A stretch of DNA of 64,000 nucleotides from Candidatus Aegiribacteria sp. (lineage in GTDB: Bacteria > Fermentibacterota > Fermentibacteria > Fermentibacterales > JCC-6), in NCBI GenBank assembly GCA_030594645.1, contig JAUVEU010000001.1, positions 81,405-145,404 on the forward strand, read 5' to 3'. The notes beneath the pieces were generated by a model, which did no database searches, had not been told where the DNA came from, and worked only from the letters and a program-made list of their open reading frames with translations. Of the stretch, positions 12,432 to 34,622 are shown one piece after another. Every line of letters begins with the position of its first letter. Positions within the stretch are counted from its first letter, which is position 1. Made by a program: the position numbers and the translations under genes.

Positions 12432-12482
12432 TCATTGCCTCCCTGAAGGGATTGAAACGTAATTGTAGACGACTTTACGGGA

Positions 12483-13097: not shown

Positions 13098-13157
13098 ATA
13101 ACCTCCTGGGAATCGTTCTGTAAAAGCAATGTAAAATAGGAACGGGAGCGGGAATCG

Positions 13158-14113: not shown

Positions 14114-14298
14114 ATTCCTCCAATCGAACAAATATACAACCAATCGATAATTACGACGATTAACAGTTGAAGGAATGTCTACCGCTTCTCCAGACTCTAT
14201 TGGTACCGGCATCCCTCATTGGTGAGGTTATGGTTCTATTCAAAGTGCTTCAAAGAGTGCTTGAGAACCTTTTCATGTTTCAGCCGGACTGCCCACTG

Positions 14299-15627
14299 TT
14301 ATGCGAACGGAGCCAGGCAGAGTGCATTCTGTATCTTATCGCGTTGTATTGAGGCTACTCCCACTTCATCCGCATAGTCCCTCCAGCGCGATACAACCTC
14401 TCTCACTTCGCCAATTATTGTCTTAACCCGCTCGTGTTTCATTGAAGCAGCCCTGGCGCACATCCTGAAATCTTCCATCGTGAAGTTAGCTCGCTTTCCG
14501 TTCATAGTCATCTGGTGACTGGATGTCCATTTCCCTCCCGGCTGGAAACTGTACGCCATGTCGAAGGCGGGTGCAAGCGACCATTTCCCGGATCTGTTCA
14601 TCAGAAAAGCAATATTCTTGACATGGTCATCCTGGTTTCGGGCAACGATATTGAATACCATCCGTCGAAACTGCTCCTCTACCGCACTGTGAGGCAGTCC
14701 GAGCCGCCGAATAACCTGATATGCCTGCTCATAGCTGTATGCACCGGCCTTGTTAAGATCGAAATGAGCCATCGCAGCAAGGGATTGCATATGGAGCTTC
14801 CCACCGTCAGGCAGCCGGTCGAATCGGCGGGTCATGAAGTGCCGACGGCCACTTTCCTCGAAGAGTCTGCACTCGCTCATCGTGATACCAGAGTCTCTTG
14901 CCATCCTGTGATAAGCATACTCGATGGCCCCGTATCCCTGGGGATCTTCCAGATCCTTATCCTTGTTGCCGCTGACTCCGTCGAACTTGAGAATCCAGTA
15001 CTCGAAACCCTCTACTGCCTTGACCTGACCAGAGCACACTTCGTTGGACTCAGGATTCCAGGCAATCACGGCTTTCGCGCGAGCCCCACCTGCGGATGTT
15101 CCAACTCTAAGGATATCTCTCATTGTATCAGCTTTGCATTTATCTGCAAATGTACCTCGCAAGTTGTCCCGATTCCTGAGAATATCGGACGCCAATTTAA
15201 CCAGTCGATCCACGTGAAGACGGGTTCTCCTTCCGGGCTGTGGACCCATGATGGGAAAGAACTCCAGAGCACCCATTCCCCTCGTTCCAGTGTAGCACAG
15301 GCGTTCCACCGCATTGAACGACTCCGGTGTCCTTCCCTGCGTAGCCAGCCATGCATCAATCAGAGTATTGCCAAACTGGTCAGGTAACGAGTCCGCCAGA
15401 AGACCCGGCAGACCATGAAAGGTGATCAACGGAAGTGCTGAAAACGCATAGACCCGCTCGGACAGCGGCATCATAAGCGGCGCAATCTGAATATCGCTTC
15501 GGGAAAACGACGGTTCATACTGGAATGACGCCGTCTCAGCACTCTCCTCCAGCGCCACCGCACCGATGGTACTACCCCATAGTCTCACCTCGGCAACCGT
15601 GCTCATTCCTGATCTCCCCAGTGCCAT
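14299..15627 (-). CDS. hipA: Type II toxin-antitoxin HipA-family serine/threonine kinase toxin.
   Basis: 442 aa. HipA N-terminal and C-terminal domains are present, including the catalytic loop RNQDDHVKNIAF. Local GC is clearly above the window average. Confidence 0.88.
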   Translation of the reverse strand: MALGRSGMSTVAEVRLWGSTIGAVALEESAETASFQYEPSFSRSDIQIAPLMMPLSERVYAFSALPLITFHGLPGLLADSLPDQFGNTLIDAWLATQGRTPESFNAVERLCYTGTRGMGALEFFPIMGPQPGRRTRLHVDRLVKLASDILRNRDNLRGTFADKCKADTMRDILRVGTSAGGARAKAVIAWNPESNEVCSGQVKAVEGFEYWILKFDGVSGNKDKDLEDPQGYGAIEYAYHRMARDSGITMSECRLFEESGRRHFMTRRFDRLPDGGKLHMQSLAAMAHFDLNKAGAYSYEQAYQVIRRLGLPHSAVEEQFRRMVFNIVARNQDDHVKNIAFLMNRSGKWSLAPAFDMAYSFQPGGKWTSSHQMTMNGKRANFTMEDFRMCARAASMKHERVKTIIGEVREVVSRWRDYADEVGVASIQRDKIQNALCLAPFA

Positions 15628-18555: not shown

Positions 18556-20175
18556 ATGCGAATACTACAAATTATCGTAAAAACAATTTTAATCATTTTA
18601 CTTATTCCCTGTTTAAGCTGGGCAGCAACCTACTATGTAGATCAGAATCATCCTGAATCCAGTGATACAAATCCAGGTACAGAATCATTACCGTGGCTAA
18701 CGATTCAGAAAGCTGCCAATACGATTATTGCAGGTGACACGGTGTACATCAAAGAAGGAATCTACAATGAGCAGGTTATACCACAGAATTCAGGAAGTTC
18801 CGGAAACCACATTACATATCTTGCTTATCCTGGCGACACCATCACAATTGATGGCACCGGTATACCATTGCCGGATTGGTATGGAGTGTTTGATATCACA
18901 GGCAAAAGCTATATCAAGGTTTCAGGGTTAAGAGTAATTAACTCCACAGATTCTGGAATTCTTGCATGGGAATCAGATCATATCACAATCGAGAATAACT
19001 ATACCTATAATACGGTTTCCTCAGGCATCGGCGTCTGGATTTGCTCCAATATAATTATTGATGGCAATGAGGTTGAGCTTGCCTGTAATGATGGTATGCA
19101 GGAATGTATTACAGTGGCTGTCACCGATACTTTTGAAGTCATGAATAATCATGTTCACCATGGAGGTCCCGGGACTAATGGAGGCGAGGGTATTGATGCA
19201 AAGGATGGAAGTTCAAACGGGATAGTTTATAAAAACTATGTGCACGATATGAATTCGAACAGATTGGGTATTTATGTAGATGCGTGGGACAAACACACCT
19301 ATAATATTGATGTCTATCAGAATACTGTACATAATTGTGCTCATGGTATTACCGTAGCTTCCGAGGCAGGCGGTCTTCTTGAAAACGTCAGAATTTATAA
19401 CAATATCGCTTACGATAATGAGGAAGTTGGAATCTGGATTGCTAACTGGTCGTTGGCACCACAGCAACCAATGAAGGATATTTTTGTGATAAACAACACC
19501 CTTTACAACAATGGGAATGAATGGGGTGGCGGAATAAATGTGATGAATTCGGATGCGGAGTATGTTGTCATAAGAAACAACATTTGTAGCCAAAACCTGT
19601 CATTTCAAATCGTAATAGAAGATGCCCCGCAAAATCTCTTTGTTGACCATAATTTAATCGATGGGTTTCGTGGATATCCGGGAGAGATTTTCGGCAGCGA
19701 CAGTGTAGTAGGAGATCCTTTGTTCGTGAATTCAGCGGAAGCCGACTTTCATCTGCAGATAAATTCACCTGCCATAGATAGAGGTTCATCTGTTGATGCA
19801 CCGAACTTCGATTTTGATGGAAATACACGACCTCAAGGTGCTGGATATGATATTGGCGCTTATGAATATCTATTGACCGGTGTTGATGAACAATCCAATG
19901 GAACACAATTGATGTTCAGGCTATATCCAAATAATCCAAATCCGTTCAATTCCGCAACTAGAATATCGTACTACATTCCAAGCTCATGTTATGTGACATT
20001 AACCATCTACGATCTTTCAGGCAGGGCAGTTCAAACTTTAGTGAATGAAAGCCAAACTACCGGCAGCCGTTCAGTCGATTTTGATGGCGGTAATCTTTCC
20101 AATGGCGTTTACTTCTACCAGTTGAAAGCAGGCAATGAGTTCGTTGAGACAAGGACTATGATATTGTTACGATAG
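18556..20175 (+). CDS. Secreted right-handed parallel beta-helix (pectate-lyase-fold) protein with a T9SS C-terminal sorting domain.
   Basis: There is a signal peptide and many Asn-ladder repeats (IYNNIAYDN, VINNTLYNNGNEWGGG, IRNNICSQN). The C-terminal Por/T9SS CTD reads LYPNNPNPFNSATRISYYIP...TIYDLSGRAV...NGVYFYQLKAGN. The gene is AT-rich relative to its surroundings. Confidence 0.8.
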   Translation: MRILQIIVKTILIILLIPCLSWAATYYVDQNHPESSDTNPGTESLPWLTIQKAANTIIAGDTVYIKEGIYNEQVIPQNSGSSGNHITYLAYPGDTITIDGTGIPLPDWYGVFDITGKSYIKVSGLRVINSTDSGILAWESDHITIENNYTYNTVSSGIGVWICSNIIIDGNEVELACNDGMQECITVAVTDTFEVMNNHVHHGGPGTNGGEGIDAKDGSSNGIVYKNYVHDMNSNRLGIYVDAWDKHTYNIDVYQNTVHNCAHGITVASEAGGLLENVRIYNNIAYDNEEVGIWIANWSLAPQQPMKDIFVINNTLYNNGNEWGGGINVMNSDAEYVVIRNNICSQNLSFQIVIEDAPQNLFVDHNLIDGFRGYPGEIFGSDSVVGDPLFVNSAEADFHLQINSPAIDRGSSVDAPNFDFDGNTRPQGAGYDIGAYEYLLTGVDEQSNGTQLMFRLYPNNPNPFNSATRISYYIPSSCYVTLTIYDLSGRAVQTLVNESQTTGSRSVDFDGGNLSNGVYFYQLKAGNEFVETRTMILLR

Positions 20176-20795: not shown

Positions 20796-22397
20796 TTAAG
20801 GCTCGTCAATCCAGATGATCCTGGTCTGGTTGTCAGGGATGATCTCACCAAGCAGAGAAATGTATCCCGTGACAGCGTCCATCAGAGTCACGCCGACAGG
20901 TACTGATTCATGCTCCAGCATGATATCGTAACCGATATTACCAATAGCAAGGTAACCGGTGGTAACGAACCTGTAAATCATTTCAGGATCGAATGGTTCG
21001 CCGCCTATCAGCATATCTCCTATCTTCTCTCCATCTGGCATCGCCTGATTTCTGATTGCTGTAAGACCGCCGATCTCCATATCACGACGACGTCCCTGCA
21101 TTCCCGTTTCAAGGATTTCCTTGAGTTCCGCTCCGCTCAGTTCGAAAACGAAGAGATCCTCCTCAAATGGAATCGCCTGATATACAATTCTGGGCGTGAT
21201 CAGCCCTCTGGGTATTGCGGCTCTGATACCACCCCGGTTCATCAGAGCAACATCCGTATCAGTGCTCCAGAGCATTGCGTCAGCTACAAGCCTGCCCATA
21301 GGATGCTCGGCATTTCCCCTTGGTATCTGCTCGTTGGCCTCACCGATTATTTCATCCATACCGGCTTCAGCAATGATTCTGAAATTCTCTATCAAATCCG
21401 CGATTTCCTGATCAGGCCAGAATTCATCATGGAGAAGGCTTATATATTCCTCTCCTTCAGGAAGATCGTAGCCAATGAGTGTACCTGATTCGGTATCGAT
21501 AGCCAGCCTGATTCTTCCAATACCTGTTCCATTGGCGTATCCCTGAACCACAATTGTATGGTTTACCGGGCTTACCCATGGTTCTGCAAAACCCAGATGA
21601 ATATGTCCTGAGACGATAAGGTCTATTCCTGAAACCAGACAAGTCAGTTCTACATGGTTCATGCAGAAGTCCTTGGTGTATTCCTCGCCGGCGTTCCATG
21701 CGTCGTACACCCTCTCCAGATACTTGTCAGTGTCTCTGGGCTGACCCAGATGCGAAACGAGAATAATCAGATCGGCTCCCTGCTCCTCTACTTCCCGTAT
21801 GTACCGCTCAGTAGTTTCCACTTCATTGAGAAAGATGTAACTCCCGAGAAGTTCAGGCGTAACCAGTCCATATGTATCAGTCGTATTAAGTCCTATGAAA
21901 GCGATTTTCACACCTTCATAATCCAGAATTTCATATGGCAGAACAGGAGCGGGTATTTCCCCTGTGGTAGAATCCACGAAGTTGGCGCAGATCACAGGGA
22001 AATCAGCCTGTTCGGAAAGATCTATGGCATTATCTGCTCCGTCATCAAAATCATGGTTGCCGAGGGTTATCATGTCATACCCGATTGCATTCATCCATTC
22101 GATGATAAGCTTTCCACTTTCATAATTTCCGGTAGGTGTTCCCTGGTAGATATCACCAGCATCGATCAGCAGGCAGTACTCCCCGTTTTCCAGGCACTCT
22201 TCACGGACTCCATCAACATAAGCGCTTATATATGCGCCTCCGCCTATCATTGGCGGAAAATCAGGATTGAGAAACGAGGCTTCTCTTGGAACGATTCCTC
22301 CGTGTATATCATTGGTATGCAATATATTGAGATATATTGTACCGGCACTTACAGGAAGAATGATTCCCAGTAGCAGTATTGGCAGCAGTCTTTTCAC
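20796..22397 (-). CDS. Secreted bifunctional metallophosphatase / 5'-nucleotidase (UshA-like).
   Basis: Calcineurin-like phosphoesterase motifs are present (ILHTNDIHGG, GNHDFD), followed by a 5'-nucleotidase C-terminal domain. The start is called at GTG 22397 with a GGCGGGAG Shine-Dalgarno site after the upstream TAG stop, giving the signal peptide MKRLLPILLLG. Confidence 0.85.
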   Translation of the reverse strand: MKRLLPILLLGIILPVSAGTIYLNILHTNDIHGGIVPREASFLNPDFPPMIGGGAYISAYVDGVREECLENGEYCLLIDAGDIYQGTPTGNYESGKLIIEWMNAIGYDMITLGNHDFDDGADNAIDLSEQADFPVICANFVDSTTGEIPAPVLPYEILDYEGVKIAFIGLNTTDTYGLVTPELLGSYIFLNEVETTERYIREVEEQGADLIILVSHLGQPRDTDKYLERVYDAWNAGEEYTKDFCMNHVELTCLVSGIDLIVSGHIHLGFAEPWVSPVNHTIVVQGYANGTGIGRIRLAIDTESGTLIGYDLPEGEEYISLLHDEFWPDQEIADLIENFRIIAEAGMDEIIGEANEQIPRGNAEHPMGRLVADAMLWSTDTDVALMNRGGIRAAIPRGLITPRIVYQAIPFEEDLFVFELSGAELKEILETGMQGRRRDMEIGGLTAIRNQAMPDGEKIGDMLIGGEPFDPEMIYRFVTTGYLAIGNIGYDIMLEHESVPVGVTLMDAVTGYISLLGEIIPDNQTRIIWIDEP

Positions 22398-22410
22398 AAT
22401 CTGCTCCCGC

Positions 22411-23643
22411 CTAGATATCAAACACACGGCTGATGGAGAACATGAGCCTTGTGTCTGTTTCCTCTATTGTCAGGCTGTCACCGGAGGTAAAGGAAGGTAA
22501 ACCGGTTATCTCTGTCTGTTTCCACCGGTCAGGCGAGAAACTGGCTCCCATGTCCAGGTTCCAATCACCTATGTGAAAGCCCATCCCTGCAGTAAAGCTC
22601 ATTCTATCCAGTGAGCTGCTCAAGGGAGAGCGGTCGTAGCCAAATCCAAACCTGGCAACAGGTCCGCCTGGAAGCGTGTTCTCAACACCGGCGTGTACTC
22701 CCCAGGAGTTGAAAAGACCGAGATTCTCGTCCTCATACTCCATTGAGCCGTCAGGACTCCAGTAGAATTCACCAGTAAATCTGGACTTCAGACTGTTTCC
22801 GGGAATGTAAATGGAACCAAACCTTACTGTCATGGGAATGTCCAGATCATAATCGGTATCTGAGAAAGTGTTCCAGGATACAGGATCACCTGTTTCTTCC
22901 GGAGAGAAAGAAAGCGGCATCGGATATTCAACCGCTGCGCTTATGAAAACTCTCCTGTCCGGTATGAATAGGATGGAACCCCTGGTCACAATACCTGAAA
23001 CGGTTTCCTCACGTTGGGAGAGGATTCCTTCCTGCGTGGGATCAACATGCATTACTTCCCATGTTACATCTCTTGACCCCGTGATGTATCCTCCTGCAAA
23101 CCCGAAAGCAAGAACCTCGGACGGTGAAAAAGCAACTGCCAGATCAAACTCGTTCCTGATGCCGGATATCTCGAGATTTTCCTCGCCTGTTTTAACATAG
23201 GAATCGTCCCGCACAGTTCTTCCATAACTGTAAGTGAAAGTGCCTGGAACCCTCCATCCGGCGGCAAACGATAAAGCCTCTGGAAGTCCCGCAATGTTCC
23301 GGAAAGCAACTGCGGCACCTCCTGGAACGAAAACAAGGTTCTTGTTGAAAGCATATTCGGATTCACCGATTGAACTGCCGAAAATGTCATAGATCCTTCT
23401 CGTTCTTTTCTCAACAGCGTAGTCCAGACCCGCCGCGATCTCCACCTGAAGACCTTCTTCGGCAATTGCCAGAAGCGCAGGGTTTTCAAGAACCCCGAGA
23501 GCGGATACATCAAGAAAACCGCAGTTCCCCATGCCAAGAGCACTGGCTGAACCGGGCGTTCCTGTTTCACCAAGCCACATAACTTCTGGGAGCCCTGCGG
23601 TAATCGCCATTAATGAAATTATTCCTGCTGCAATGATATTCAT
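22411..23643 (-). CDS. Outer-membrane beta-barrel protein (FadL/PorV-like), hypothetical.
   Basis: 410 aa with a signal peptide, alternating beta-strand patterning and an aromatic-rich C-terminal strand (RLMFSISRVFDI). Confidence 0.55.
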   Translation of the reverse strand: MNIIAAGIISLMAITAGLPEVMWLGETGTPGSASALGMGNCGFLDVSALGVLENPALLAIAEEGLQVEIAAGLDYAVEKRTRRIYDIFGSSIGESEYAFNKNLVFVPGGAAVAFRNIAGLPEALSFAAGWRVPGTFTYSYGRTVRDDSYVKTGEENLEISGIRNEFDLAVAFSPSEVLAFGFAGGYITGSRDVTWEVMHVDPTQEGILSQREETVSGIVTRGSILFIPDRRVFISAAVEYPMPLSFSPEETGDPVSWNTFSDTDYDLDIPMTVRFGSIYIPGNSLKSRFTGEFYWSPDGSMEYEDENLGLFNSWGVHAGVENTLPGGPVARFGFGYDRSPLSSSLDRMSFTAGMGFHIGDWNLDMGASFSPDRWKQTEITGLPSFTSGDSLTIEETDTRLMFSISRVFDI

Positions 23644-23655
23644 ATTTCCTCCACC

Positions 23656-26088
23656 CTACCAGCGGAAATCAAGCTGACATCGGATGCCATAATCTGTTAC
23701 ATGATCGTTGAAATCCCTCACCGGACTGTTCGGATCACCCTCGTAATAAAAGCTGTCATCGGGATCAGGCCTGTAAAGACCGGTGCGGGGATAGAAAGTG
23801 TCCTTTCTGAGTACCCTGAGCCTGAGCTGCAGGTTATCAGACAAAATATTCTTGATGGTTACATAGAATTTGGTTCCATCTCCATCAAGGAAATCTATTC
23901 CAGTATCCTCGAACTCCCACTGACTCATACCGTCCGTGGACCATAGAGTCGTTCCACCAAGAACAGACAGATTCTCACTGAAGTTGTGTTCCCATCTCGC
24001 GGAGATGTAGCCACCGGACAGAAGCCGGTCATCACCATATCTTGGATTTGGAGTAAGTTCAACCATTCCGTACCGGAGCCTGACGTCAAAGTAGTCATGT
24101 CCGGTGGGAAGGAAAAAGGTTCTGAAGGTGAATTCCTGCGTACGCGATGTGGTTGGAATCACGTCATGCATTTTGGTTTTCTCCTGGTATTTGCATTTCA
24201 ATCTGAACCTGACAGGAAAAACAGGGCGATACTCGATCTCCCCCTGAAATCTGTAATTATCAAATCCCCATGGCAGAGAACGCCATATATCAAGATACAC
24301 TTTCGGGAATGTTATCTGCCTGCTCAACTGGAAACGGCTTTCAATGTAGACACCCTCTTCGGGCTTTGGTGTCGGCCATTCCGCAAGCTGCGAAGTAAGC
24401 GGGTCGTTGAGGTAATATGGTTTCTCAAAAACGGTATCATCGTATCTGAGCTGTTCCGCAAATCCACGGTTGTATGGATTAGTAAAGCCGATATCGTAGT
24501 GTCTCCAAATACCGAGCAGATAGAAATAGTCATTCTGCCACCTGGCCCTTGCGAGCGTGGCAATCGACTCGTTATCCTGCCGGACGAATTCTCCCTCAAG
24601 GCTGAAATTATCCAGAATTGTCTGAGCTGAGAAAGCAAGATAAGAGGATGAATTCCCTGCTGCAAGAACATCGTATTCCGGACATTCCCATGGTTGCGCA
24701 TCACCTGGAATATCCATGGTTCCTGAATCCGGAATGAGAGAATCACTGTAGGAAATATTCATGCCGCCTATACCGATCGCGGTCCCGCAGGGAAGGATTC
24801 CTCCAAGGTCAAAGAAACCGTACCCTCCATAAGTTGTTTCCTTTATCACATCAGCATATGGAGAAGTACGTGCAGAAGACATTATCAGAATATTCGGTGT
24901 TCCATCAATGTCTCTTACAGCGTCTCTTGATGCCGATGAATAGAATCCGTATCCAAGGAAAGGTCCCTCATGCATTTCCACGGCTCCACCGATCAAGGCG
25001 AACTGACGTGTTGAGGTAAGATCCGGATATAGTCCCCATGTACCGTAAGTGGAGCGGTACCAGAGCTCATCTGAATTATTCACCATCAGTCCCTGACCAA
25101 GTGATAGATTGTAATTTCCAAGTACGACCTGGTTCACAATACCGATGTTCTCCATCGATACAAAAACTTTGGCGACATCAAACCTTTGATTAAGGTCACC
25201 GAGATCCATATCCGATATCAGATCGAATCCAGCTGTGGAATTTCTTCCCCTGGAGAACCTTGTTCCACCCCGGAACCTGTCTCCAAATCCGACACGTACC
25301 CTGTGCTCCCAGCCGGTAACGTTCTGTGCTCCGAGAAGCTCTTCGTACTCGCTGTCGATTCTTTCAGCCCAGGCCACGCTGTCAGAGTCGGTATATCCTC
25401 TTTCACCGGTTTCTATGTCGTACTTCGCGGATCGAAGGCTGTTGAGCATTTCATATAATCCATCCTCATCAGATGATCTCCCGTCACCGCCATCGACAAC
25501 AACCCTGTAACCGCCGAAGAAATCCATAGAACTCAGGTCAAGTTCGCGGGTTGAAACGTAATCCCGCATATTCCTGTAGCCATAGTAACTCAGGTAATCC
25601 GCGTTTCGGAGTGAGGTAACGCTCGAAACAGGGCCAAGAGTGTTCAGTCTTCGCTCGACAGCCACCGCATCAATCAGACTTACTCTGTCCAGACTTCGGA
25701 GCTGCCACGAAGTTGCTGAATTAATCGGCAGAGGATGCAGAAGGTAATGCTCCCAGAGGTCTACAGCAGCGTCACCAGGGCCGTCCTCTGTAGCAAGTCT
25801 TTCCATTATTTCCAGTATATCGCTGGAAATTCTCCCTTCAGAAGGAGGGACAACCACGCAGTTACCGCGAAGCCACTGCAGTTCCACAGTCGTAAAACCA
25901 GGAATTTCCATAATATCGTAAATATTGAGAAGACCCCCTGTTTCATAAATGAAATCATAGAGGTCAGAGGCCTGTTGAGAATTCAATCCCTCAAGCGCCT
26001 GCAATTCCTGAAGAGATGCGGTATTCAGATCAAATCCGTTCGGGACAGACAAGCCAATAGCAACCGCCAGTATTAAACTAGAAACCAT
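23656..26088 (-). CDS. Large outer-membrane protein with two N-terminal helix-hairpin-helix (ComEA-like) motifs and a C-terminal beta-barrel-like region.
   Basis: 810 aa with a signal peptide. The HhH motifs are DLNTASLQELQALEGLNSQQASDLYDFI and PINSATSWQLRSLDRVSLIDAVAVERR. A long Gly/Tyr/Asp-rich beta region follows, ending ...RCQLDFRW. Confidence 0.6.
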   Translation of the reverse strand: MVSSLILAVAIGLSVPNGFDLNTASLQELQALEGLNSQQASDLYDFIYETGGLLNIYDIMEIPGFTTVELQWLRGNCVVVPPSEGRISSDILEIMERLATEDGPGDAAVDLWEHYLLHPLPINSATSWQLRSLDRVSLIDAVAVERRLNTLGPVSSVTSLRNADYLSYYGYRNMRDYVSTRELDLSSMDFFGGYRVVVDGGDGRSSDEDGLYEMLNSLRSAKYDIETGERGYTDSDSVAWAERIDSEYEELLGAQNVTGWEHRVRVGFGDRFRGGTRFSRGRNSTAGFDLISDMDLGDLNQRFDVAKVFVSMENIGIVNQVVLGNYNLSLGQGLMVNNSDELWYRSTYGTWGLYPDLTSTRQFALIGGAVEMHEGPFLGYGFYSSASRDAVRDIDGTPNILIMSSARTSPYADVIKETTYGGYGFFDLGGILPCGTAIGIGGMNISYSDSLIPDSGTMDIPGDAQPWECPEYDVLAAGNSSSYLAFSAQTILDNFSLEGEFVRQDNESIATLARARWQNDYFYLLGIWRHYDIGFTNPYNRGFAEQLRYDDTVFEKPYYLNDPLTSQLAEWPTPKPEEGVYIESRFQLSRQITFPKVYLDIWRSLPWGFDNYRFQGEIEYRPVFPVRFRLKCKYQEKTKMHDVIPTTSRTQEFTFRTFFLPTGHDYFDVRLRYGMVELTPNPRYGDDRLLSGGYISARWEHNFSENLSVLGGTTLWSTDGMSQWEFEDTGIDFLDGDGTKFYVTIKNILSDNLQLRLRVLRKDTFYPRTGLYRPDPDDSFYYEGDPNSPVRDFNDHVTDYGIRCQLDFRW

Positions 26089-26908
26089 AAGTCACCCCGG
26101 CCTGGTGAGTCAGGTCGAGCTGAGGATGCGTTATTACAGCGTATTCCACTGTAATACCTCTGATTGTTGTATTCAACCCTCCGGATATTGAGACCGGATT
26201 ACTCTGAACCCCTGCCAGGATGTTCACAGAGCCAAGGGGAAGAGCCTGGCCTACATGTATGCGTAAACCATTGAAATCCCTGGAGAAAGTCAATGCCGAA
26301 ATCATTCCGGTGACCGGTTCGTACCTGAGACCTGCGTCTATTCTTCTTCGGAGATATTCTCCACTTTCACCCAGTCTTGCCTGGAAAGGGTTCCTGATGG
26401 AGGCAGCGAGCATCCACCTTCTGTACATTCTAACCTGAAATCCCGCATTGACCGCGAAAGTGCTCGCGCTTCCGTACTCGGAAACACCATCAGAAATAAC
26501 AGCTCTGCAGAAAACAGGCTGGAGACCGAAAGACATATCTTTGGTAAGCATTCCGGCAAAGGTTATCGCCGCCATCTGTTCATTGTAGAGATCACCGCCG
26601 AAATAGCGAATGCTTGCTCCGCAGACCCAGGATTCACTTATCGGAAAGGCTCCATCGATTCCGTATGTTCCGAAATCCATATTCGTAAAAGGGAGCCTGC
26701 CTGATATGGTTACAGATGAAGATGTGCTTCCCGCTATGGATGCGGGGTTGAAAAGAAGCGCTCCGGTTCCATACAGCACAACTCCCGTTCCGCCCATGCC
26801 CTGCGATGTGATCCCTATTTCCATTTCCTCAAATGCCGCCCACGACTGCCCTGCAATGATCAGAAGGGCAAACAGAACCGTAGTCGTTCTCAAATACATT
26901 ATTGCCAC
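26078..26908 (-). CDS. Outer-membrane beta-barrel protein, hypothetical (PorP/PorQ-like size).
   Basis: 276 aa with a signal peptide ending SWA-AFEE, beta-strand patterning and a C-terminal GVTYGF. Confidence 0.5.
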   Translation of the reverse strand: MAIMYLRTTTVLFALLIIAGQSWAAFEEMEIGITSQGMGGTGVVLYGTGALLFNPASIAGSTSSSVTISGRLPFTNMDFGTYGIDGAFPISESWVCGASIRYFGGDLYNEQMAAITFAGMLTKDMSFGLQPVFCRAVISDGVSEYGSASTFAVNAGFQVRMYRRWMLAASIRNPFQARLGESGEYLRRRIDAGLRYEPVTGMISALTFSRDFNGLRIHVGQALPLGSVNILAGVQSNPVSISGGLNTTIRGITVEYAVITHPQLDLTHQAGVTYGF

Positions 26909-26909
26909 C

Positions 26910-27944
26910 TCAATTCAGGGGAGTTGCTACGACGAGAGTTTCAGTCGTTGAAAAGTGCTTTCCATCAGAGTCCACGCCTTCAAGGAGAAGCACATAAGGT
27001 CCGAGTGGAAGAATTTTGTTGTAATCGTCTTTTCCATCCCACTGAACAACGTCACCGGCTGGACGGGATTCCGCGAGATGAGTCACGGCTCTTCCCGATC
27101 TGTCAAAAACAGTAAGAGTAAAACGCATTCCGGCAGGACCGCCGTATTCAAGATTAACGGTTTCGCCAAGTACCGGAGCGAATGGATTACCGGTAAGAAC
27201 TGTAAGGTGAAAACCATCATAAATCGATGGCTGGTATACTTCCAGATCAGTCTGATATCTTGGAAGTAACTGGTATCCGCTATTATAAGGAGGTTCTGAA
27301 TCGTATTGCCCGCCGATGCCAAGCATGAACAGACGGGTACCGGCAGCGATATTGGAAACACTGATTCCAGTAGACTCGTTTACACGAACTGCAACTGAAG
27401 TCTGTCCGTTCCAGACGTTGAAATTGTATCCGCCCCCCGCAGACTCAGGATCATTGGCTACTGTAACCCATTGGGATAGCGAACTGTTTCCCAGAGCGAG
27501 AAGCTGACCTTCGATGCTTTCTGAAACTCCCTGATTCAAAGCCAGCTGAAGCGGCTGAGGCTCACCGGGATGATCGATGTAAACAAAATCCGAAGGTGAA
27601 TCGGGGGATATCTCGGTAAGACCGTTGTACTGCATGATCTCTCCGGTTATCCTCCATTCGTCCCCGGCTTCGATGACTCCCGGACTCGCTGAGCTGTAAG
27701 CGTATACATTTATTCCAGCTGTTTCATCCTGAACATAGAAACTCAGCCCTGTTTCGGAGAACAGCGTTCCCTCACATGTCGCGACCCCTTCTATGGTGAG
27801 GATTTCTCCAAGGTGATCTGGAATTCCATCACCGTTGAGGTCTTCTCTGGCTTCAGCAATCGAAACCGTCTGAGCACCGGCTAATCCTGCAAACAGGATT
27901 AACATCAGAACCGGGAAACTTCTTATCATCGTCTCCCCTTTCAC
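26910..27944 (-). CDS. Secreted protein with an OB-fold-like N-terminal region and a C-terminal FlgD-Ig/T9SS-type sorting domain.
   Basis: There is a signal peptide. The OB-fold-like nucleic-acid-binding pattern is GEILTIEGVATCEGTLFSETGLSFYVQDETAGINVYAY...GDEWRITGEIMQYNGLTEI. The C-terminus reads RFTLTVFDRSGRAV...VLLLEGVDSDGKHFSTTETLVV. Confidence 0.5.
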   Translation of the reverse strand: MKGETMIRSFPVLMLILFAGLAGAQTVSIAEAREDLNGDGIPDHLGEILTIEGVATCEGTLFSETGLSFYVQDETAGINVYAYSSASPGVIEAGDEWRITGEIMQYNGLTEISPDSPSDFVYIDHPGEPQPLQLALNQGVSESIEGQLLALGNSSLSQWVTVANDPESAGGGYNFNVWNGQTSVAVRVNESTGISVSNIAAGTRLFMLGIGGQYDSEPPYNSGYQLLPRYQTDLEVYQPSIYDGFHLTVLTGNPFAPVLGETVNLEYGGPAGMRFTLTVFDRSGRAVTHLAESRPAGDVVQWDGKDDYNKILPLGPYVLLLEGVDSDGKHFSTTETLVVATPLN

Positions 27945-27958
27945 AAGTGAATTAACTG

Positions 27959-29308
27959 TCAGTCAAGTTCGGAACCAAGCTCGGCATCTGCAAGGATGGC
28001 AGCTCTGGATAGAGCTTCTTCGGCACTCATTCTTCCATAGAGAGCAATCTCCACCGCCTCCGAAAGAAAAAGCCTTCCATCATACCAGAATGTCTGCTGT
28101 GGTTCGAACTGCGCGTATTCAATCTGTAGCATTACGTCTTCAAGACCGGGATACTCCACAAAGCGTTCCTGTATTTCAGGTTCCTCGATAGAACTGCGTG
28201 TAGCGGGAATATATCCGGTGGCAGCGCTCCATCTGGCCTGCTGACGAGGCTCTGTGAACCATTTGATGAACTCCCAGCCTGCTTCTATTTCATCAGGATC
28301 CGATTTAAAGAGAATAACATTCGTTCCCGCTATTATTACAGCCTGCTCCAGGTAAGCCGGAAGAGGAGCTATCCCCAGTGTAAAAACATATTCTCCATTT
28401 TCCTCCCTGCGCTGAAAGGTCTTTTCCATAAATGCAAGCGAAACCGTAGATCCCTGCACAAGACCAACGAGACCCTCCGCAAAATCGTTCTGATGTGTAT
28501 AACCGGAAGAAATCCTTGCGGAACCATCGGTATGTATCAGATCTATCATGAATTGAAGAGCCTCTATACCAGCCTGCGACGCAAACGCGGTTCTTGACCC
28601 GTCTTCAGACAGCAGAGATCCGCCACCCTGAAGAAGAAGGTTTTCGAACATACCCACACTGGGAGTGAATGCCGTTCCCCATCGATCAACATCGTCAAGC
28701 AGATCACCATCATTGTTGCCATCAACGGTAAGAGCGATCAGCAGATTGCGGTATTCGTCTCTTGTTGCTGCTGGTTCAAGGTTCAGACTGTCCATAAGCT
28801 CAACATTGTAATAGACAGCCTGCGCGCTTTTGTTGAAAGGAAAACTGTAGATTCTTCCGTCAAACGTATTATTCAGTCTGAAAACAGGGAAAAAATCGTT
28901 ATACCATCTGTCTGTAACATCCGGTGTATCAAGCTCCATGAGAGAGTCCAGAGGTACAAGGGCATTCCCTCTTATCAGCTGAGATGTCCAGGTTTCGTAT
29001 GCCTGTGCAACAACCGGGGTATCACCGGCCATGACGCTTGCCAGTATTTTCTGACAAAGGGCTCTGTAATTCCCCATGCTGACAGGAATAACTTCGATAT
29101 CCGGATGGGTAGCATTGAATTCGGCTACAAGTGAATCCTCCATGAATTCACCCAGAGGTCCGCCCATCGCGTGCCAGAACAAAACCTGAACAACACTGTC
29201 ATCGGCCTGTTCATTATTACCGCAGGCGAGCAGAATCAGGAGAAAGAAAAGTAAAAGAAAATGGTGTTTGATAAGATCAACCCCCCGAAATATCAAATTG
29301 AAACTCAT
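27959..29308 (-). CDS. ABC transporter substrate-binding lipoprotein (solute-binding protein family 1).
   Basis: 449 aa with a lipobox (LLACGNN). The SBP_bac_1-like fold is indicated by regions such as VLFWHAMGGPLGEF and FPFNKSAQAVYYN. No permease or ATPase gene is adjacent. Confidence 0.78.
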   Translation of the reverse strand: MSFNLIFRGVDLIKHHFLLLFFLLILLACGNNEQADDSVVQVLFWHAMGGPLGEFMEDSLVAEFNATHPDIEVIPVSMGNYRALCQKILASVMAGDTPVVAQAYETWTSQLIRGNALVPLDSLMELDTPDVTDRWYNDFFPVFRLNNTFDGRIYSFPFNKSAQAVYYNVELMDSLNLEPAATRDEYRNLLIALTVDGNNDGDLLDDVDRWGTAFTPSVGMFENLLLQGGGSLLSEDGSRTAFASQAGIEALQFMIDLIHTDGSARISSGYTHQNDFAEGLVGLVQGSTVSLAFMEKTFQRREENGEYVFTLGIAPLPAYLEQAVIIAGTNVILFKSDPDEIEAGWEFIKWFTEPRQQARWSAATGYIPATRSSIEEPEIQERFVEYPGLEDVMLQIEYAQFEPQQTFWYDGRLFLSEAVEIALYGRMSAEEALSRAAILADAELGSELD

Positions 29309-29363: not shown

Positions 29364-29618
29364 TCAGTCTTCCTGGCAGCACTTCCCTGATGCACAACTG
29401 TCCGGTTTGCTGTCAGATCCGCAACAGCTCGATCTTGAATTAGCATAGTCAGTTGCGTGAAATCCCGCCCCTTTGAAGATAATACCTGAACCGGTTCCTA
29501 TCAGCCGCTCTACTTCGCAGCCGCATTCAGGGCATGTTTTAATTGAATCATCACTCATCTGATGGAACTCTTCAAATTTGTGACCGCACTTTTTACATTT
29601 GTACTCATACGTTGGCAT
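29364..29618 (-). CDS. FmdB-family zinc-ribbon protein.
   Basis: The protein starts MPTYEYKCKKCGHKFE and contains CPECG, a Cys-rich tail. Confidence 0.7.
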   Translation of the reverse strand: MPTYEYKCKKCGHKFEEFHQMSDDSIKTCPECGCEVERLIGTGSGIIFKGAGFHATDYANSRSSCCGSDSKPDSCASGKCCQED

Positions 29619-29914
29619 TATTCTGATTCCTTCTTGGTTCTCTTCACAATATTATCTATCATGCTTATCGCCCCTGCAGGACATGCTGCGGCGCATGCGC
29701 CACATCCAGCACACCCCTTCTTAACGGAGGCTGCTCGATTCCTTCCAACTCTGATTCTTCCATAGTAACAGACGGATTCACATTCACCGCATCCCTTACA
29801 AAGCTCCTGTTTTACTGCAGCCCTGCGCAAAGGATGAGGTTTCCTCCAGATTCCTTTTCCGGGATAACCTTCAGCCGTATCCCGCTTGAGAATGTCCAGA
29901 ACGCCCATCTTCAA
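29618..29914 (-). CDS. 4Fe-4S dicluster ferredoxin-like protein.
   Basis: Two CxxCxxCxxxC(P) motifs are present (CKGCGECESVC and CAGCGACAAACP). Confidence 0.7.
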   Translation of the reverse strand: MKMGVLDILKRDTAEGYPGKGIWRKPHPLRRAAVKQELCKGCGECESVCYYGRIRVGRNRAASVKKGCAGCGACAAACPAGAISMIDNIVKRTKKESE

Positions 29915-30267
29915 ATCCTTTCAGAACTTAGTACAGGCAAGAATCATTCCAGTTAATATGCACCTATTATTACCTTATTGTCAACAACTTACAATCCCAG
30001 TCATCAGATGGAAAGGAGAATGGCGCCAATTTGACATAACAGATGAATCCGATTTAAGTACAATATTGCAGATGGAAAGAGATCCATTTTTCTATCGGTC
30101 GATATCCCACTATTTATGATTTATCTACTACGATCCAACTTATTACTGGACGCCAGGATGATCTGACATTAGTTTTTATTATAATAACATTCTTTTAACT
30201 GGTGAGGTTTAGAACTCTCTCTTGTTTAATGAATTAATACTTATCATTTAATGAAAGAAGAAATCGA

Positions 30268-31149
30268 ATGAAAAATTTTATCTTCATTGCTTTTATTGCT
30301 TTATCGATTTTGTCATCAGCAGGTGCCGTATCTTTATCCCCCTCTACTGAAGGTTTATCTCCGGATGATAGATCTGATGGGTCAAAAGGCGGCTCATTGA
30401 TAGCTGAGATCGCGGGACCATCCAATTGGGCACAAGTTTGGGGAGTTGCTTATCACGACGACCATAACATGCTTTATGTCAGCAGTAAACTCGATGACGA
30501 GGTAGCATACGGGGCTTACTCAGGCGGGAGGATAGTAACATGGACAGTGTTCGACAATGTTGAAGCTGTTTGCGGCCTGGGATGCTATCAGGATGATCTG
30601 CTCTTCGCATTGACCTGGAGTAATCCCCTGCATCCGGTACCATATTACCTGTATACCTGGAATCTCGATGCTTCCGGAGTACCGCTGCTTCCTGCAGATG
30701 TGTATGAACTTGGCACCCCTTTCACAGGCTCCCTGGGTGGATGTGAATGGGATGGAGAATATCTTTGGATTGTAGACAACTATACAAATTGTGATATATA
30801 CAAGTATGATGTGAGTACGCATTCAGTGATGAGTAATTGGACATACAGTGAACCGGGGGGCATTGGTATCGCATGTGTCTGGATTACGGGTGACATCAGA
30901 ATCTGGATAAGTGACTGGTACGGCGGCTACAAACTCTCGGAACATTCAGAAACCGGAGTTCTGACCGGGTTGAGTTACAGCATTATCACTAGCCCTCTCG
31001 ATATCGCGTACAAATACGATATGAATTTTGACGGTCCGGGATTTTTCGTTGGAAATTGGTTTGCAAGCACGGTAGATTTTTATGACCATTACCCGATGAC
31101 ACTGGATAGTTCTACGTGGGGCTGCATAAAAGCTGGTTTTGTTGACTAA
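30268..31149 (+). CDS. Hypothetical secreted protein.
   Basis: 293 aa with a signal peptide, rich in W/Y/G. It lies in an AT-rich island that switches to the plus strand. Confidence 0.5.
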   Translation: MKNFIFIAFIALSILSSAGAVSLSPSTEGLSPDDRSDGSKGGSLIAEIAGPSNWAQVWGVAYHDDHNMLYVSSKLDDEVAYGAYSGGRIVTWTVFDNVEAVCGLGCYQDDLLFALTWSNPLHPVPYYLYTWNLDASGVPLLPADVYELGTPFTGSLGGCEWDGEYLWIVDNYTNCDIYKYDVSTHSVMSNWTYSEPGGIGIACVWITGDIRIWISDWYGGYKLSEHSETGVLTGLSYSIITSPLDIAYKYDMNFDGPGFFVGNWFASTVDFYDHYPMTLDSSTWGCIKAGFVD

Positions 31150-32214: not shown

Positions 32215-33297
32215 TTACAGGTTTTCGGAAACGCGTCTGATAGAAACTGGTGACCCTTCTTTGACTCTGAACTGGCCTTCGACAATCACAGAATCAGTTA
32301 TTTCAATCCCGGATAGTATCTGTGCCATTCCACCACTTCTTATACCTATCTCTACAGACCTTATCGATGTAATCCCATTCTCCACAACAGCAACATAAAA
32401 ACCGGAGCCTGTTCTTCTTAAAATATTTTCGGGAACCAGTAGAACATCTTCAACGATCTCGGTTATGATACATACTCTTCCGCTCATTCCCGATCTCAGT
32501 CTGCCATCCGGGTTGTGAAATGTAATTCTCGTTGGAACTTTCCCGCTTACTGGATCCACAGAACTTGATACAGCAGTAACAATTCCAGGAAAGGATTCAC
32601 CGTAGAGCACCTGAACTGTCACATAGGCAGGAAGCCCAACGGAAAGGTCGAAAAGGTAGATTTCAGGGAGCATTATCTGAGCGGATATTTCAGATGTATT
32701 TGAAATACTGAGTAATGGCTCTCCTGAAACAGTATTGCCTGTTCGAGCCCAGATCCTTCCAACTTTTCCTGAAAAAGCCGCCGTTACATAAGCACTGGAT
32801 TGGCTGCTTCTGGTAAGAGCGTAGACTGCATACGCCTGATTAAGATTTTCCCTGGTGATCGATGCTGCTGCCCTGGCATCTTCCATTTGCTGCTCACTTA
32901 CAGCACCTGCCTGGTAAAGTCCAGATAATCTGTCGAAGGTTGTCTGTGCGTTGTCAGCATATGCTTTTGCAACACTGACAGAGGCGTTTGCAGCAATGGT
33001 TTCAGCATTAACTCCCTGATCGGAATCAAGCTTCACAAGATGCTGCCCGGCAGTCACCGAGTCACCTTCCACGACAAGAACCTCTTCGATCCGCCCCGGC
33101 ACCGTTGCATAGACAAGAGTCTCTTCTATTCCTTCGAGCCTTGTGTCCACATATATGGCTGCGGATATGGAGGAAATCTCCGGAGATGCAACAGAGACAT
33201 TTATTACAGGCAAATCCAGTTCTTCCTCTGATCCACATGCTGCTATCATGAGAATAAGAATTAAGACTGATCTCAAACGGAAACTGGTTCGTTTCAT
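32215..33297 (-). CDS. Efflux RND transporter periplasmic adaptor subunit (MFP).
   Basis: 360 aa lipoprotein (MIAACGSEE). Biotinyl/lipoyl-like and beta-barrel MFP domains are present. Confidence 0.85.
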   Translation of the reverse strand: MKRTSFRLRSVLILILMIAACGSEEELDLPVINVSVASPEISSISAAIYVDTRLEGIEETLVYATVPGRIEEVLVVEGDSVTAGQHLVKLDSDQGVNAETIAANASVSVAKAYADNAQTTFDRLSGLYQAGAVSEQQMEDARAAASITRENLNQAYAVYALTRSSQSSAYVTAAFSGKVGRIWARTGNTVSGEPLLSISNTSEISAQIMLPEIYLFDLSVGLPAYVTVQVLYGESFPGIVTAVSSSVDPVSGKVPTRITFHNPDGRLRSGMSGRVCIITEIVEDVLLVPENILRRTGSGFYVAVVENGITSIRSVEIGIRSGGMAQILSGIEITDSVIVEGQFRVKEGSPVSIRRVSENL

Positions 33298-34622
33298 ATA
33301 TTCTCCTCCGGTTCTGTGTTGAACTGGAGATCCGGGTCCAGTATACCCATAGCCCTTGCAACATGTCCTTCGGCAATTCTCAGTTTGTAAAGAGCTGAAG
33401 CTAAGTTTGTTCTTGCAGATGTAAATGCCAGAAAAGCCTGATCCATATCGAGTCTTGTGATTGTCCCGGCTTCGTATGAAACTATCGCTATCTCCGTGGA
33501 TTCCTGTGCCTGTCTCAGAGTGTATGATGTGGCATCTACACTCTCTTTTGCCTCTATCAGACTGTTCCAGGCCTGCAACAGAAACAATGAGGTCGCCTGC
33601 CTGAGAGATCCTGCATTAGCTTGATAAGCCAGCCGATCTGCCCTGGCGGAATTGTATCCGGCAATATCATTCAATCCATTGAAGAGAGGTATCTGGATCA
33701 TCACAGAGGCGCACAGGTTTCTCTCATAATCATCTGAAGTAAAATGCCAGTCATCACGCATTGCATGGTAGTTAAAATCGGTTTGAAGGATAAGAGAAGG
33801 ATAGAAAGCAGCTGAAGCCATTGACACCTGCGCGTTCCCTATTTCTTCCATTATTGCTGCGGTTACCAGGTCAGGATTGCTATTCAACATTATTTCACAG
33901 GCTTCTTCATACGTTTCAGGCAGAATGAAAAACGGAACGGTTTCCAGACTACCATCCGGTTTCACAGACACATCATCGGATAGACCAAGCGCTACTGCAA
34001 AACTGGCTATTGCATGATGTAATCCGCTTCGAGCCGCGATTTCATCAGGTTTCCTGTTTTCCCAGGCTACTTCACTTTGAAGTAATTCAAACCGTGAGAT
34101 AATGCCTGCTTCAAAACGGGCCTGTGCTACTTCAAAACCCTCCTCAGCAATAGTCAAGGCTTCTTCTGATACCATAACCATTTCCTGTGCGAGAAGAACT
34201 CCATAAAATGCTTCTATTACGTCAAGAACAACATCCTGTTCTACAGAAGTTAATTGACTGACAAAGAGGTTTTCAGTCTCAACCGACAACCTGTAACCGG
34301 CAGGACCCTGAGGAATGAAAAGGGGGATATCCACGCTTATCCCTGCGTATGAGACATATTCAGAACCCATGGGAATCGAACCCATCCCGGCAACCTCAAT
34401 CACCTGAACATCATAGTCGCGTATGAAACTAAGATTCGCATTAACAGAAGGGAGGAACCAGAGTTCAGCATTGCGTCTGTCCCAGGTAGAACTCTCCAGA
34501 GTACTCCTTGCTGCCATCAGGTCATTACGTTTCTCAAGTGCAGCTCTGATTGATTCCTCCAGCGTAAGAGAATGTGCCGTTCCGCATATAAGCAGGAATG
34601 TCAATATATCGGATGATTTCAC
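33294..34622 (-). CDS. TolC-family outer-membrane efflux protein.
   Basis: TolC repeats are present. The start is called at GTG 34622..34620 with a GAAGAAGG Shine-Dalgarno site, sharing one base with the RND TAG stop (TAGTG) and giving the signal peptide MKSSDILTFLLICGTAHS. The longer ORF to 34736 overlaps the RND gene. Confidence 0.85.
   Translation of the reverse strand: MKSSDILTFLLICGTAHSLTLEESIRAALEKRNDLMAARSTLESSTWDRRNAELWFLPSVNANLSFIRDYDVQVIEVAGMGSIPMGSEYVSYAGISVDIPLFIPQGPAGYRLSVETENLFVSQLTSVEQDVVLDVIEAFYGVLLAQEMVMVSEEALTIAEEGFEVAQARFEAGIISRFELLQSEVAWENRKPDEIAARSGLHHAIASFAVALGLSDDVSVKPDGSLETVPFFILPETYEEACEIMLNSNPDLVTAAIMEEIGNAQVSMASAAFYPSLILQTDFNYHAMRDDWHFTSDDYERNLCASVMIQIPLFNGLNDIAGYNSARADRLAYQANAGSLRQATSLFLLQAWNSLIEAKESVDATSYTLRQAQESTEIAIVSYEAGTITRLDMDQAFLAFTSARTNLASALYKLRIAEGHVARAMGILDPDLQFNTEPEENI

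Follow-up and report, generated by a model that had tools for sequence, protein, structure and literature searches.

The 64,000-nt window analysed here, from the genome of Candidatus Aegiribacteria sp. (Fermentibacterota), carries at 20796-27944 on the minus strand a cluster of five consecutive genes, g1 to g5, numbered in the direction of transcription. The cluster directly follows the gene of a lipoprotein solute-binding protein (27959-29308, 449 amino acids (aa)). The first gene, g1 (26910-27944, 344 aa as an open reading frame), encodes a secreted tandem OB-fold protein; g2 (26078-26908, 276 aa) a predicted barrel of the PorV/PorQ family; g3 (23656-26088, 810 aa) a protein composed of helix-hairpin-helix (HhH) modules and a barrel; g4 (22411-23643, 410 aa) a predicted BamG/FadL(Toluene_X)-like barrel; and g5 (20796-22427, 543 aa as an open reading frame) a UshA-family metallophosphatase/5'-nucleotidase. 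All of these genes, and the features mapped within them and upstream of them, lie on the minus strand. The initial annotation of the window had described five co-oriented genes encoding an OB-fold-like protein with a FlgD-Ig/type IX secretion system (T9SS) tail, two smaller outer-membrane proteins, a very large barrel fused to two ComEA-type HhH modules and a UshA-like phosphatase, with the solute-binding lipoprotein immediately upstream. All five open reading frames were recovered, and the structural predictions (the OB fold, the two ComEA-type HhH modules, the large barrel and the UshA-like phosphatase) are borne out by the data given below.

The genes are tightly packed, and g1-g5 are translationally coupled. 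Two of the start codons were revised. The true start of g1 is most likely the ATG at 27929, because it is preceded by a GGGGAG ribosome-binding site and gives a protein of 339 aa, which is the length of most homologues (the relatives are mostly of 334-339 aa). Similarly, the true start of g5 is most likely the GTG at 22397, because it is preceded by a GGGAG ribosome-binding site. With the revised starts, the gap between the solute-binding gene and g1 is 29 nt, that between g1 and g2 is 1 nt, g2 and g3 overlap by 11 nt, and the gaps from g3 to g4 and from g4 to g5 are 12 and 13 nt, respectively. The initial annotation had considered that the 5'-nucleotidase might be transcribed separately; g5 follows g4 closely, with a ribosome-binding site of its own, and the promoter scan revealed no evident promoter belonging to it.

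The largest product of the cluster, g3, combines two ComEA/EEPD1-type HhH modules (residues about 18-178, 25555-26037) with a beta-barrel (residues about 185-810, 23659-25536). The HHH_3 domain (PF12836) was recognised in g3 itself at 1.5e-8 (35.1 bits, compared with a Pfam cut-off of 27), and it is kept in all ten of the distant g3 family members tested. A profile of the family matched the tandem HhH modules of human EEPD1 (9yi2) at 4e-20 over positions 13-166 and, with one module aligned, the structures of ComEA (8dfk, 5.5e-9; 8dss, 2e-8). Against the comEA families themselves, g3 scored 20.9 versus 152 bits (TIGR01259) and 15.8 versus 53 bits (TIGR00426), and its modules are fused to a barrel of ~620 aa. 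At 50% identity, the g3 family falls into about 157 clusters (E<=1e-30), whose members are named 'HhH domain-containing' or 'ComE-like' only.

The AlphaFold2 (AF2) model of g3 (predicted local distance difference test score (pLDDT) 83.5, predicted TM-score (pTM) 0.80) is helical up to residue 175 and, as assigned by DSSP, has 24 long strands in residues 190-809, ending in a C-terminal ...DFRW beta-signal. When compared with the PDB using Foldseek, the barrel resembled large barrels in general (FimD/PapC ushers, SlpA, AlgE, BtuB, MtrB and PirA-type proteins) with E-values of about 1e-7, low TM-scores and no specific family standing out; the T9SS translocon SprA was not among the top matches. 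No Plug/TonB-receptor match was found in Pfam, and no plug domain was seen in the secondary structure of the model. The initial annotation had also raised the possibility of an endonuclease concealed in this protein, which was rejected: HHH_3 was the only Pfam match, with nothing elsewhere in the protein, the profile search of the PDB returned HhH proteins only, and the model has no spare globular domain. The first loop of the barrel forms a helical hairpin (residues 204-253).

In one distant relative of g3 (P0229, 1251 aa), the HhH modules and the barrel are preceded by an N-terminal extension of ~430 aa with periplasm-type tetratricopeptide (TPR) repeats. Because the HhH modules of g3 are N-terminal to an even-stranded barrel that ends in an aromatic residue, and because of the TPR repeats in P0229, they are most likely located in the periplasm and not on the cell surface, which points to uptake rather than to surface binding alone. 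The layout of P0229 also recalls that of the TPR-barrel polysaccharide exporters PgaA, BcsC and PelB.

The two smaller barrels were characterised at the level of their families. g2 matched the PorV_fam model (NF033709) at 2.5e-7 with 30.6 bits, which is under the cut-off of 90; a PorV/PorQ match was obtained for 21 of the 22 members of its family (best 7e-26), PorV2 was matched in nine and PorQ in four, and the best solved match of the g2 profile was PorV (6h3i_F, 6e-5). From these matches, g2 is predicted to be a PorV/PorQ-family barrel of the FadL fold. g4 matched the BamG model (NF053685) at 1.5e-5, with 24.3 bits against an equivalog cut-off of 250. A weak BamG match was seen in 18/22 members of the g4 family, and its distant homologues gave a Toluene_X match. 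The g4 profile matched 9hjm_F (2.3e-11), BamG (9n2d_B, 1.3e-8), the FadL-family proteins 3dwo and TbuX, and PorV, and when g2 and g4 were aligned to each other with hhalign, a probability of 97.9% (E 3.6e-13) was obtained. The profile data thus identify g4 as a putative BamG/FadL-like barrel, homologous or paralogous to g2 and not a BamG equivalog. Searches of the PDB with the single sequences of g2 and g4 gave nothing significant; the matches to solved structures needed profiles built from related loci.

The product of g1 starts with a signal peptide that ends at about AGA (followed by QT). It continues with tandem OB folds (residues about 25-240, 27225-27872), which resemble the DNA-binding modules of HIN-200 proteins and RPA, and ends with a predicted FlgD-Ig/T9SS type-A-like C-terminal domain (residues about 245-344, 26913-27212). 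In the AF2 model (pLDDT 89.1), the signal peptide precedes a pair of OB-type barrels (~48-236), and an Ig-like sandwich (246-339) forms the C-terminus. The first Foldseek matches of this model in the PDB were the HIN-200 domains of p204, p202, IFI16, AIM2 and MNDA, which bind double-stranded DNA, followed by the tandem-OB telomere folds of Teb1 and CST (E from 1.9e-5, probability 1.0), and the C-terminal sandwich matched PorZ and PorU. Among the 24 relatives examined, the tRNA_anti-codon OB domain was matched in eight and DUF5689 in six (best 1.6e-14). The g1 homologue of one related locus (L059; the related loci are referred to by such labels hereafter) passes the DUF5689 cut-off with 43.4 vs 28.6 bits, and g1 itself had no DUF5689 match in Pfam at E<0.1. 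The tail is equally a property of the family, FlgD_ig being found in 23/24 and Por_Secre_tail in 4/24 (best 1e-11); in g1 itself, the matches to FlgD_ig (3.2e-4, 21 bits) and CHU_C (2.3e-3, 18.4 bits) are both under the cut-off of 27. Some g1 homologues are called 'YhcR'-like in the JGI annotation. The ExeM/NucH model gave a weak match to 80 residues of the N-terminal region of g1 (18.6 bits, cut-off 300), and a Pfam search detected neither an EEP nor an LTD domain in g1.

The product of the last gene of the cluster, g5, matched Metallophos (5.6e-12) and 5_nucleotid_C (1.1e-27), both above the Pfam cut-off, and aligned with the solved nucleotidase 3ivd over its full length (3.9e-50). The match to the UshA model (9.1e-55) reached 186 vs 600 bits, hence g5 is not a UshA equivalog. 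The motifs DIHG, GDIYQG, GNHDFD, SHLG and GHIH are present in the translation; the protein has a signal peptide, no T9SS tail and is presumably periplasmic. The solute-binding protein at the other end matched SBP_bac_8 (1.5e-34), SBP_bac_1 (9.3e-27) and the UgpB model (1.8e-25), and a lipobox, LLAC, can be read from its translation. Its best solved relatives were the Thermus thermophilus series 7c0f-7c19 (1.9e-37), which we take to be a dinucleotide (U3G)-binding protein, and then UgpB. The U3G-binding protein of T. thermophilus has been placed beside UgpB (PMC12718374). Judging by these matches, the solute-binding protein falls into the UgpB-like branch of CUT1, in the predicted phosphodiester-binding UgpB/U3G clade. 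No ATP-binding cassette (ABC) permease or ATPase genes were found in the window neighbourhood of its gene or in the related loci. The protein may serve the outer-membrane system as an orphan binding component, and it could even be exposed on the surface.

The conservation of the five-gene arrangement, on which the initial annotation had made its interpretation depend, was examined in a scan of one genome per species, in which 77 loci were collected. Several contigs of metagenome-assembled genomes showed 95% identity to the organism. Within Fermentibacterota, gene order and orientation were identical in 61/61 loci, with g3 identities of 53-95%. All six genes (the solute-binding gene and g1-g5) were present in 46 of the 61, the remaining loci being cut by contig ends; the solute-binding gene, located directly 5' of g1 in these 46, opens the conserved cluster in this phylum. 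Outside the phylum, g2-g3-g4 is kept in WOR-3, TA06 and Cloacimonadota, where g3 is about 35-38% identical, and the same order was found in more distant metagenomic contigs with g3 identities of 24-27%, in which the g1-, g2- and g4-like genes were confirmed by hidden Markov models (HMMs) built without those sequences. Such an arrangement is far beyond chance. Wherever a locus extends far enough, a g2 homologue adjoins g3, also in L081 and L083, and the minimal invariant unit, as represented by these two loci, is g2-g3. Most of the relatives outside the phylum also carry g4 and an OB protein, and many of them a 5'-nucleotidase.

The core is accompanied by a recurring set of genes. Upstream of it, an OB-fold protein is encoded nearly always: in Fermentibacterota this is the 339-aa g1 type, whereas WOR-3, TA06 and Cloacimonadota have proteins of 452-1130 aa that combine DUF5689 and OB folds with a sorting domain. 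Proteins with OB/DUF5689 and a C-terminal sorting domain were found upstream in L059-L064, L069 and L071, whereas L078, L079 and L082 have LTD+OB proteins in this place, the C-terminal half of which aligns to the whole of g1. Downstream of the core, the same three loci contain Exo_endo_phos (EEP) nucleases, and in L059 and L062 a PLDc_2 Nuc-type protein of 188 aa and a half-nucleotidase are encoded there. The 5'-nucleotidase, likewise downstream, occurs in Fermentibacterota and in L070, L072-L075, L079, L080 and L084. In L084, a PHP/CehA-like metallohydrolase with a FlgD-Ig tail and then a 266-aa paralogue of g2 are encoded 3' of the 5'-nucleotidase (12208-14345), and this second pair suggests a general rule by which every tailed protein is matched by its own PorV/PorQ-like barrel.

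Several related loci have further neighbours. In the WOR-3 locus L060, the gene of a ComM/YifB-type Mg-chelatase-like AAA ATPase (12003-13118) stands after g4; in L061, from a metagenome-assembled genome related to that of L060, g1-g4 are arranged in the same way. In other bacteria, ComM functions as a competence helicase, and a YifB homologue of Riemerella anatipestifer reportedly affected transformation. PorU-like C25 peptidases and a Porphyromonas-type peptidylarginine deiminase, all T9SS-tailed, are encoded in L070 (447-4346) and L073 (871-3198 and 3291-4994), a few kb 5' of g2; both are WOR-3 loci without a g1 gene. The gene of QueH, an epoxyqueuosine reductase, lies directly 3' of g4 in L069 (6013-6657) and L071 (11581-12189), which belong to WOR-3/TA06. 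This adjacency may be a coincidence or may indicate a link to nucleoside/queuosine salvage.

In the window itself, the compact string of minus-strand genes runs from 29914 to 20796 and starts with the genes of a 4Fe-4S ferredoxin (29618-29914) and an FmdB-type zinc ribbon protein (29364-29618), both recognised by Pfam and NCBIfam matches. The two genes overlap by 1 nt, and 55 nt separate the FmdB gene from the solute-binding gene. In most of the Fermentibacterota loci they precede the solute-binding gene, and they probably belong to the same transcription unit as g1-g5. The sole sizeable non-coding stretch is an AT-rich spacer of 350 bp located 5' of the ferredoxin gene, and it holds the best promoter-like site, the sigma-70-like TTGACA-18-CATATT at 29955-29984 (10/12 positions). 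The promoter and terminator scans of the operon region gave site counts not above shuffle expectation and no significant internal sites, therefore this site is regarded only as a candidate for the operon promoter. An Rfam search of the operon and its surroundings produced no match to a riboswitch or regulatory RNA at E<=1. The spacer also contains two copies of an 11-nt direct repeat, CTTTCCATCTG, situated 64 nt apart (30005-30015 and 30069-30079, minus strand). It was rejected as a regulator site, being absent from the corresponding region of every related locus.

Further away, a right-handed beta-helix (pectate-lyase/NosD-like) protein with a clear Por_Secre_tail is encoded at 18556-20175, and the organism thus has other T9SS-type cargo. 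The flanks (14299-15627 and 32215-38763) hold the gene of a HipA-like toxin kinase and a complete resistance-nodulation-division (RND) efflux operon with two HlyD-type adaptors, AcrB and an outer-membrane factor. The beta-helix cargo, HipA, the efflux system and a radical S-adenosylmethionine (SAM) enzyme were tried as parts of the locus and found to be unrelated to it; a downstream DUF2085 gene was dropped as well, since it is adjacent in close relatives only.

Taking the observed folds and domains, the compactness of the operon, the synteny across phyla and the association with nucleases and nucleotidases as a starting point, we propose with moderate confidence that the locus encodes an envelope apparatus that captures extracellular nucleic acid, moves it across the outer membrane and strips phosphate from it. 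A function in nucleic acid handling is suggested mainly because the core recurs beside nucleic-acid-binding and -hydrolysing proteins. From these data we infer the scheme that follows, including all of its interactions, its topology, the substrate and the transport direction. g1 would be exported and held on the surface by its T9SS-type C-terminal domain, docked non-covalently in the g2 barrel in the manner of PorZ and PorQ, and its tandem OB folds would bind DNA or RNA. The barrel of g3, with about 24 strands, would serve as a wide conduit having g2 and g4 as likely partners, the latter as an accessory barrel, as BamG is to BamA. The polymer or its fragments would pass through g3 and be caught in the periplasm by the fused HhH modules, which would act as a tethered ratchet replacing free ComEA. 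Nucleases encoded elsewhere in the genome (in the locus itself in relatives) would then release nucleotides, the periplasmic g5 would dephosphorylate them, and the UgpB-like lipoprotein may bind phosphodiester fragments, e.g. dinucleotides, for uptake across the inner membrane.

This proposal modifies that of the initial annotation, which had suggested that extracellular DNA is bound at the surface and degraded to nucleosides and phosphate. Capture and scavenging gain support from the nucleases, nucleotidases and LTD+OB proteins associated with the related loci; the display of HhH modules on the surface does not, as these are probably periplasmic. As for the degradation, the 5'-nucleotidase step is represented by g5, and the nuclease step is not encoded in the window.

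A number of observations weigh against an apparatus for nucleic acids. No nuclease domain was found using Pfam and NCBIfam in the nine proteins of the operon region, nor in the Fermentibacterota version of the locus, and the hairpin at residues 204-253 of g3, the sole extra element of that protein, is too small for a nuclease domain. L081 and L083 hold only g2 and g3, with no nucleic-acid genes nearby. Taken alone, g1 stays under the Pfam thresholds for the OB, DUF5689 and sorting domains, so that its assignments depend on its relatives and on the AF2 model. With a net charge of -24 and an isoelectric point (pI) of 4.05, its OB region is strongly acidic, as it is in all lineages (pI 4.05-4.8), which argues against simple electrostatic binding of DNA. 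The HhH region of g3 is likewise acidic in Fermentibacterota (pI about 4.3, zero or one lysine), and its glycine-rich hairpins, as read from the A1 consensus, are partly degenerate.

The acidity has to be seen against the background of the genome. The secreted and envelope proteins encoded in the window are strongly acidic and lysine-poor, with pI values of 4.1-4.7 (e.g. those at 18556-20175, 20796-29308, 30268-31149 and 33294-34736), suggesting that the envelope proteome is adapted to salt. Aegiribacteria are known from saline habitats, which generally acidic secreted proteins fit. The charge of the HhH and OB regions may be no more than that of a secreted proteome which is acidic in general, and this complicates arguments about DNA binding that are based on charge. 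For this reason, and because the HhH region is basic in some WOR-3-type relatives, we treat the acidity as a caveat and not as disproof of DNA binding.

The components of the locus could also be understood as a competence machine, in which g1-g2-g3-g4 would bring transforming DNA to ComEC in place of the type IV pilus, PilQ and free ComEA, while g5 would recycle nucleotides of the degraded strand. The ComEA-type HhH is the classical periplasmic DNA receptor of competence, and R. anatipestifer requires three components for transformation, namely a DUF5689 protein, an outer-membrane barrel and an HhH protein (PMC8459023); moreover, the versions of the Bacteroidota Ddb system that serve feeding and transformation have been called evolutionarily related (PMC12478041). 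The ComM/YifB-type ATPase after g4 in L060 would agree with such a role, however this adjacency is limited to one lineage. Furthermore, the locus is steadily tied to catabolic enzymes (5'-nucleotidase, PLD and EEP nucleases, PHP hydrolase) and, in Fermentibacterota, to a solute-binding protein, and no comEC, dprA or comF gene is present in the examined neighbourhood in the window or in the annotated loci. We therefore consider competence an unlikely primary function.

It is similarly improbable, in our opinion, that g2, g3 and g4 constitute a T9SS-related sorting and anchoring module that exports or holds tailed cargo, in which case the nucleic-acid theme would be that of the cargo and DNA would be degraded outside the cell. 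Such a module would account for the PorV/PorQ-family assignment of g2, for the resemblance of g4 to BamG, an anchor of a surface lipoprotein (PMC12611786), and for the T9SS-type sorting domains of g1 and its relatives. It would also accommodate the second tailed protein of L084 with its second g2-like barrel, the PorU-like C25 peptidases a few kb upstream in L070 and L073, and the other tailed cargo encoded in the window at 18556-20175. Nevertheless, it leaves the fusion with HhH modules in every tested member of the g3 family unexplained; a sorting domain is absent from g5 and from several of the nucleases, the g2-g3-only loci have no adjacent cargo, and SprA is missing from the top matches of the g3 model.

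A more general scavenging of organophosphates or polyanions, of the Pho-regulon type, would extend the substrates to RNA, nucleotides, glycerophosphodiesters or polyphosphate, and the HhH and OB domains would then bind another polyanion or be structural. A UgpB-like solute-binding protein and a UshA-like phosphatase are a classical phosphate-scavenging pair, the OB and HhH regions are both acidic here, and the locus includes no nuclease. Folds of the HHH_3 type are also known from proteins without DNA-binding activity, one of them being the 12-kDa extrinsic protein of photosystem II (PSII). On the other hand, relatives have no solute-binding protein but keep the OB, HhH-barrel and nuclease genes, and the PLD-Nuc and EEP enzymes and the LTD+OB (ExeM/NucH-like) architecture are specific for nucleic acids, which makes this explanation quite improbable. 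Finally, a chance cluster of unrelated outer-membrane protein genes, for which only the weakness of the database matches of each single barrel could be quoted, is practically untenable given that 61/61 loci are colinear, that g2-g3 persists across phyla down to 24% identity of g3, mostly together with g4, and that the genes overlap or are 1-13 nt apart.

Returning to the uptake of extracellular nucleic acid as the preferred function, a further step would be to regard g2-g3, in most cases with g4, as a third kind of outer-membrane conduit for nucleic acids, next to the type IV pilus/PilQ secretin route and the DdbC-type TonB-dependent transporter. It would consist of a ~24-strand channel, independent of TonB and pili, with a ComEA-like ratchet fused to it on the periplasmic side and PorV/FadL-like partners that tether an OB receptor by its T9SS sorting domain, and it would be common to Fermentibacterota, WOR-3, TA06, Cloacimonadota and other uncultured lineages. 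We put this forward tentatively, as a possibility that falls somewhat short of being probable. Literature searches on the HhH-barrel family, on Fermentibacteria and extracellular DNA, and on Fermentibacter and T9SS found nothing specific. The crossing of the outer membrane by DNA is understood for the pilus/secretin route and has only recently been glimpsed for the TonB-dependent transporters of Bacteroidota. If the proposal is true, a channel with built-in ComEA-type domains would be a simple and energetically distinct solution, as well as a direct test of the binding-ratchet model for DNA uptake. In the sediments, digesters and saline mats inhabited by Fermentibacterota, WOR-3 and Cloacimonadota, extracellular DNA is a major reservoir of phosphorus, nitrogen and carbon, and with a conserved marker locus, populations that forage for DNA or are transformable could be recognised from metagenomic data. 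The locus also suggests a use of PorV/PorQ-type barrels and T9SS sorting domains beyond protein secretion, namely in building complexes for nutrient uptake.

The individual parts of the locus can be related to several known systems. The YhcR protein of Bacillus subtilis unites OB folds, a nuclease and a 5'-nucleotidase in one wall-anchored protein. In the present locus, as in YhcR and ExeM/NucH, OB modules come together with a 5'-nucleotidase, to which its relatives add LTD and EEP nuclease domains; in contrast to these proteins, the modules are split over genes here and joined to an outer-membrane channel, and g1 is without a catalytic domain. With the PorQ-PorZ and PorV-PorU pairs of the T9SS, the locus has in common a predicted PorV/PorQ-family gene, g2, beside the gene of a putatively T9SS-tailed protein, g1, and with the SprA-PorV pair the obligatory association of a PorV-like barrel with a much larger one, g3. 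However, g2 is shorter (276 aa) and under the family cut-off, g3 has ~24 strands and HhH modules compared with the 36 strands of SprA, and no PorK/L/M/N or SprA genes are present in the locus. BamG of the Bacteroidota BAM (barrel assembly machinery) complex docks on BamA and anchors a surface lipoprotein (PMC12611786). It is of the same FadL-type fold family as g4 and provides a precedent for the role of an accessory barrel, although g4 belongs to a specialised operon and is not encoded with bamA. In natural competence, ComEA receives DNA in the periplasm and serves as a ratchet (PMC3879209, PMC9747964), and the modules of g3 resemble it in their HHH_3-type fold and, presumably, in a periplasmic location and the retention of incoming DNA. 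Unlike g3, which has two modules mounted on an outer-membrane barrel and in which the lysines are absent, ComEA is small, free or anchored in the inner membrane, and works with the type IV pilus and PilQ.

The closest described systems are the DNA-utilisation locus ddbABCDEF of Bacteroides thetaiotaomicron, where DdbD, a DUF5689 protein with HIN/p202-like folds, partners the DNA transporter DdbC (PMC12478041), and the transformation system of R. anatipestifer, for which RA0C_RS04915/04920 and the HhH protein RA0C_RS02645 are essential (PMC8459023). The gene of a DUF5689/HIN-like tandem-OB surface protein, a kind to which g1 may belong, stands beside that of an outer-membrane barrel, as in the present locus, and secreted or periplasmic enzymes acting on nucleic acids are associated with both; both systems also belong to the FCB (Fibrobacterota-Chlorobiota-Bacteroidota) superphylum. 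The HIN-200 domains are the best match of the g1 model, as was reported for DdbD, with the reservation that g1 itself is under the DUF5689 threshold. The requirement of R. anatipestifer for a separate HhH protein yields the same three ingredients as found here. The differences concern mainly the channel, which in these systems is a TonB-dependent transporter (CarboxypepD_reg, Plug and a 22-strand barrel), whereas g3 has ~24 strands, fused HhH modules and no Plug/TonB match. Two PorV/FadL-like barrels are an addition of the present locus; g1, with its signal peptide and predicted T9SS-type C-terminal domain, differs from the lipoprotein DdbD, and the ddb locus encodes three nucleases whereas this window encodes none. 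The statement of the initial annotation that no such locus is described thus holds for the channel family with fused HhH modules, which appeared in no paper found, and has to be narrowed for the remainder, since DUF5689/HIN-like loci are known in Bacteroidota (PMC12478041, PMC8459023). Overall, the locus is probably a variant of these known DNA uptake and utilisation loci, and its channel may represent a new class.

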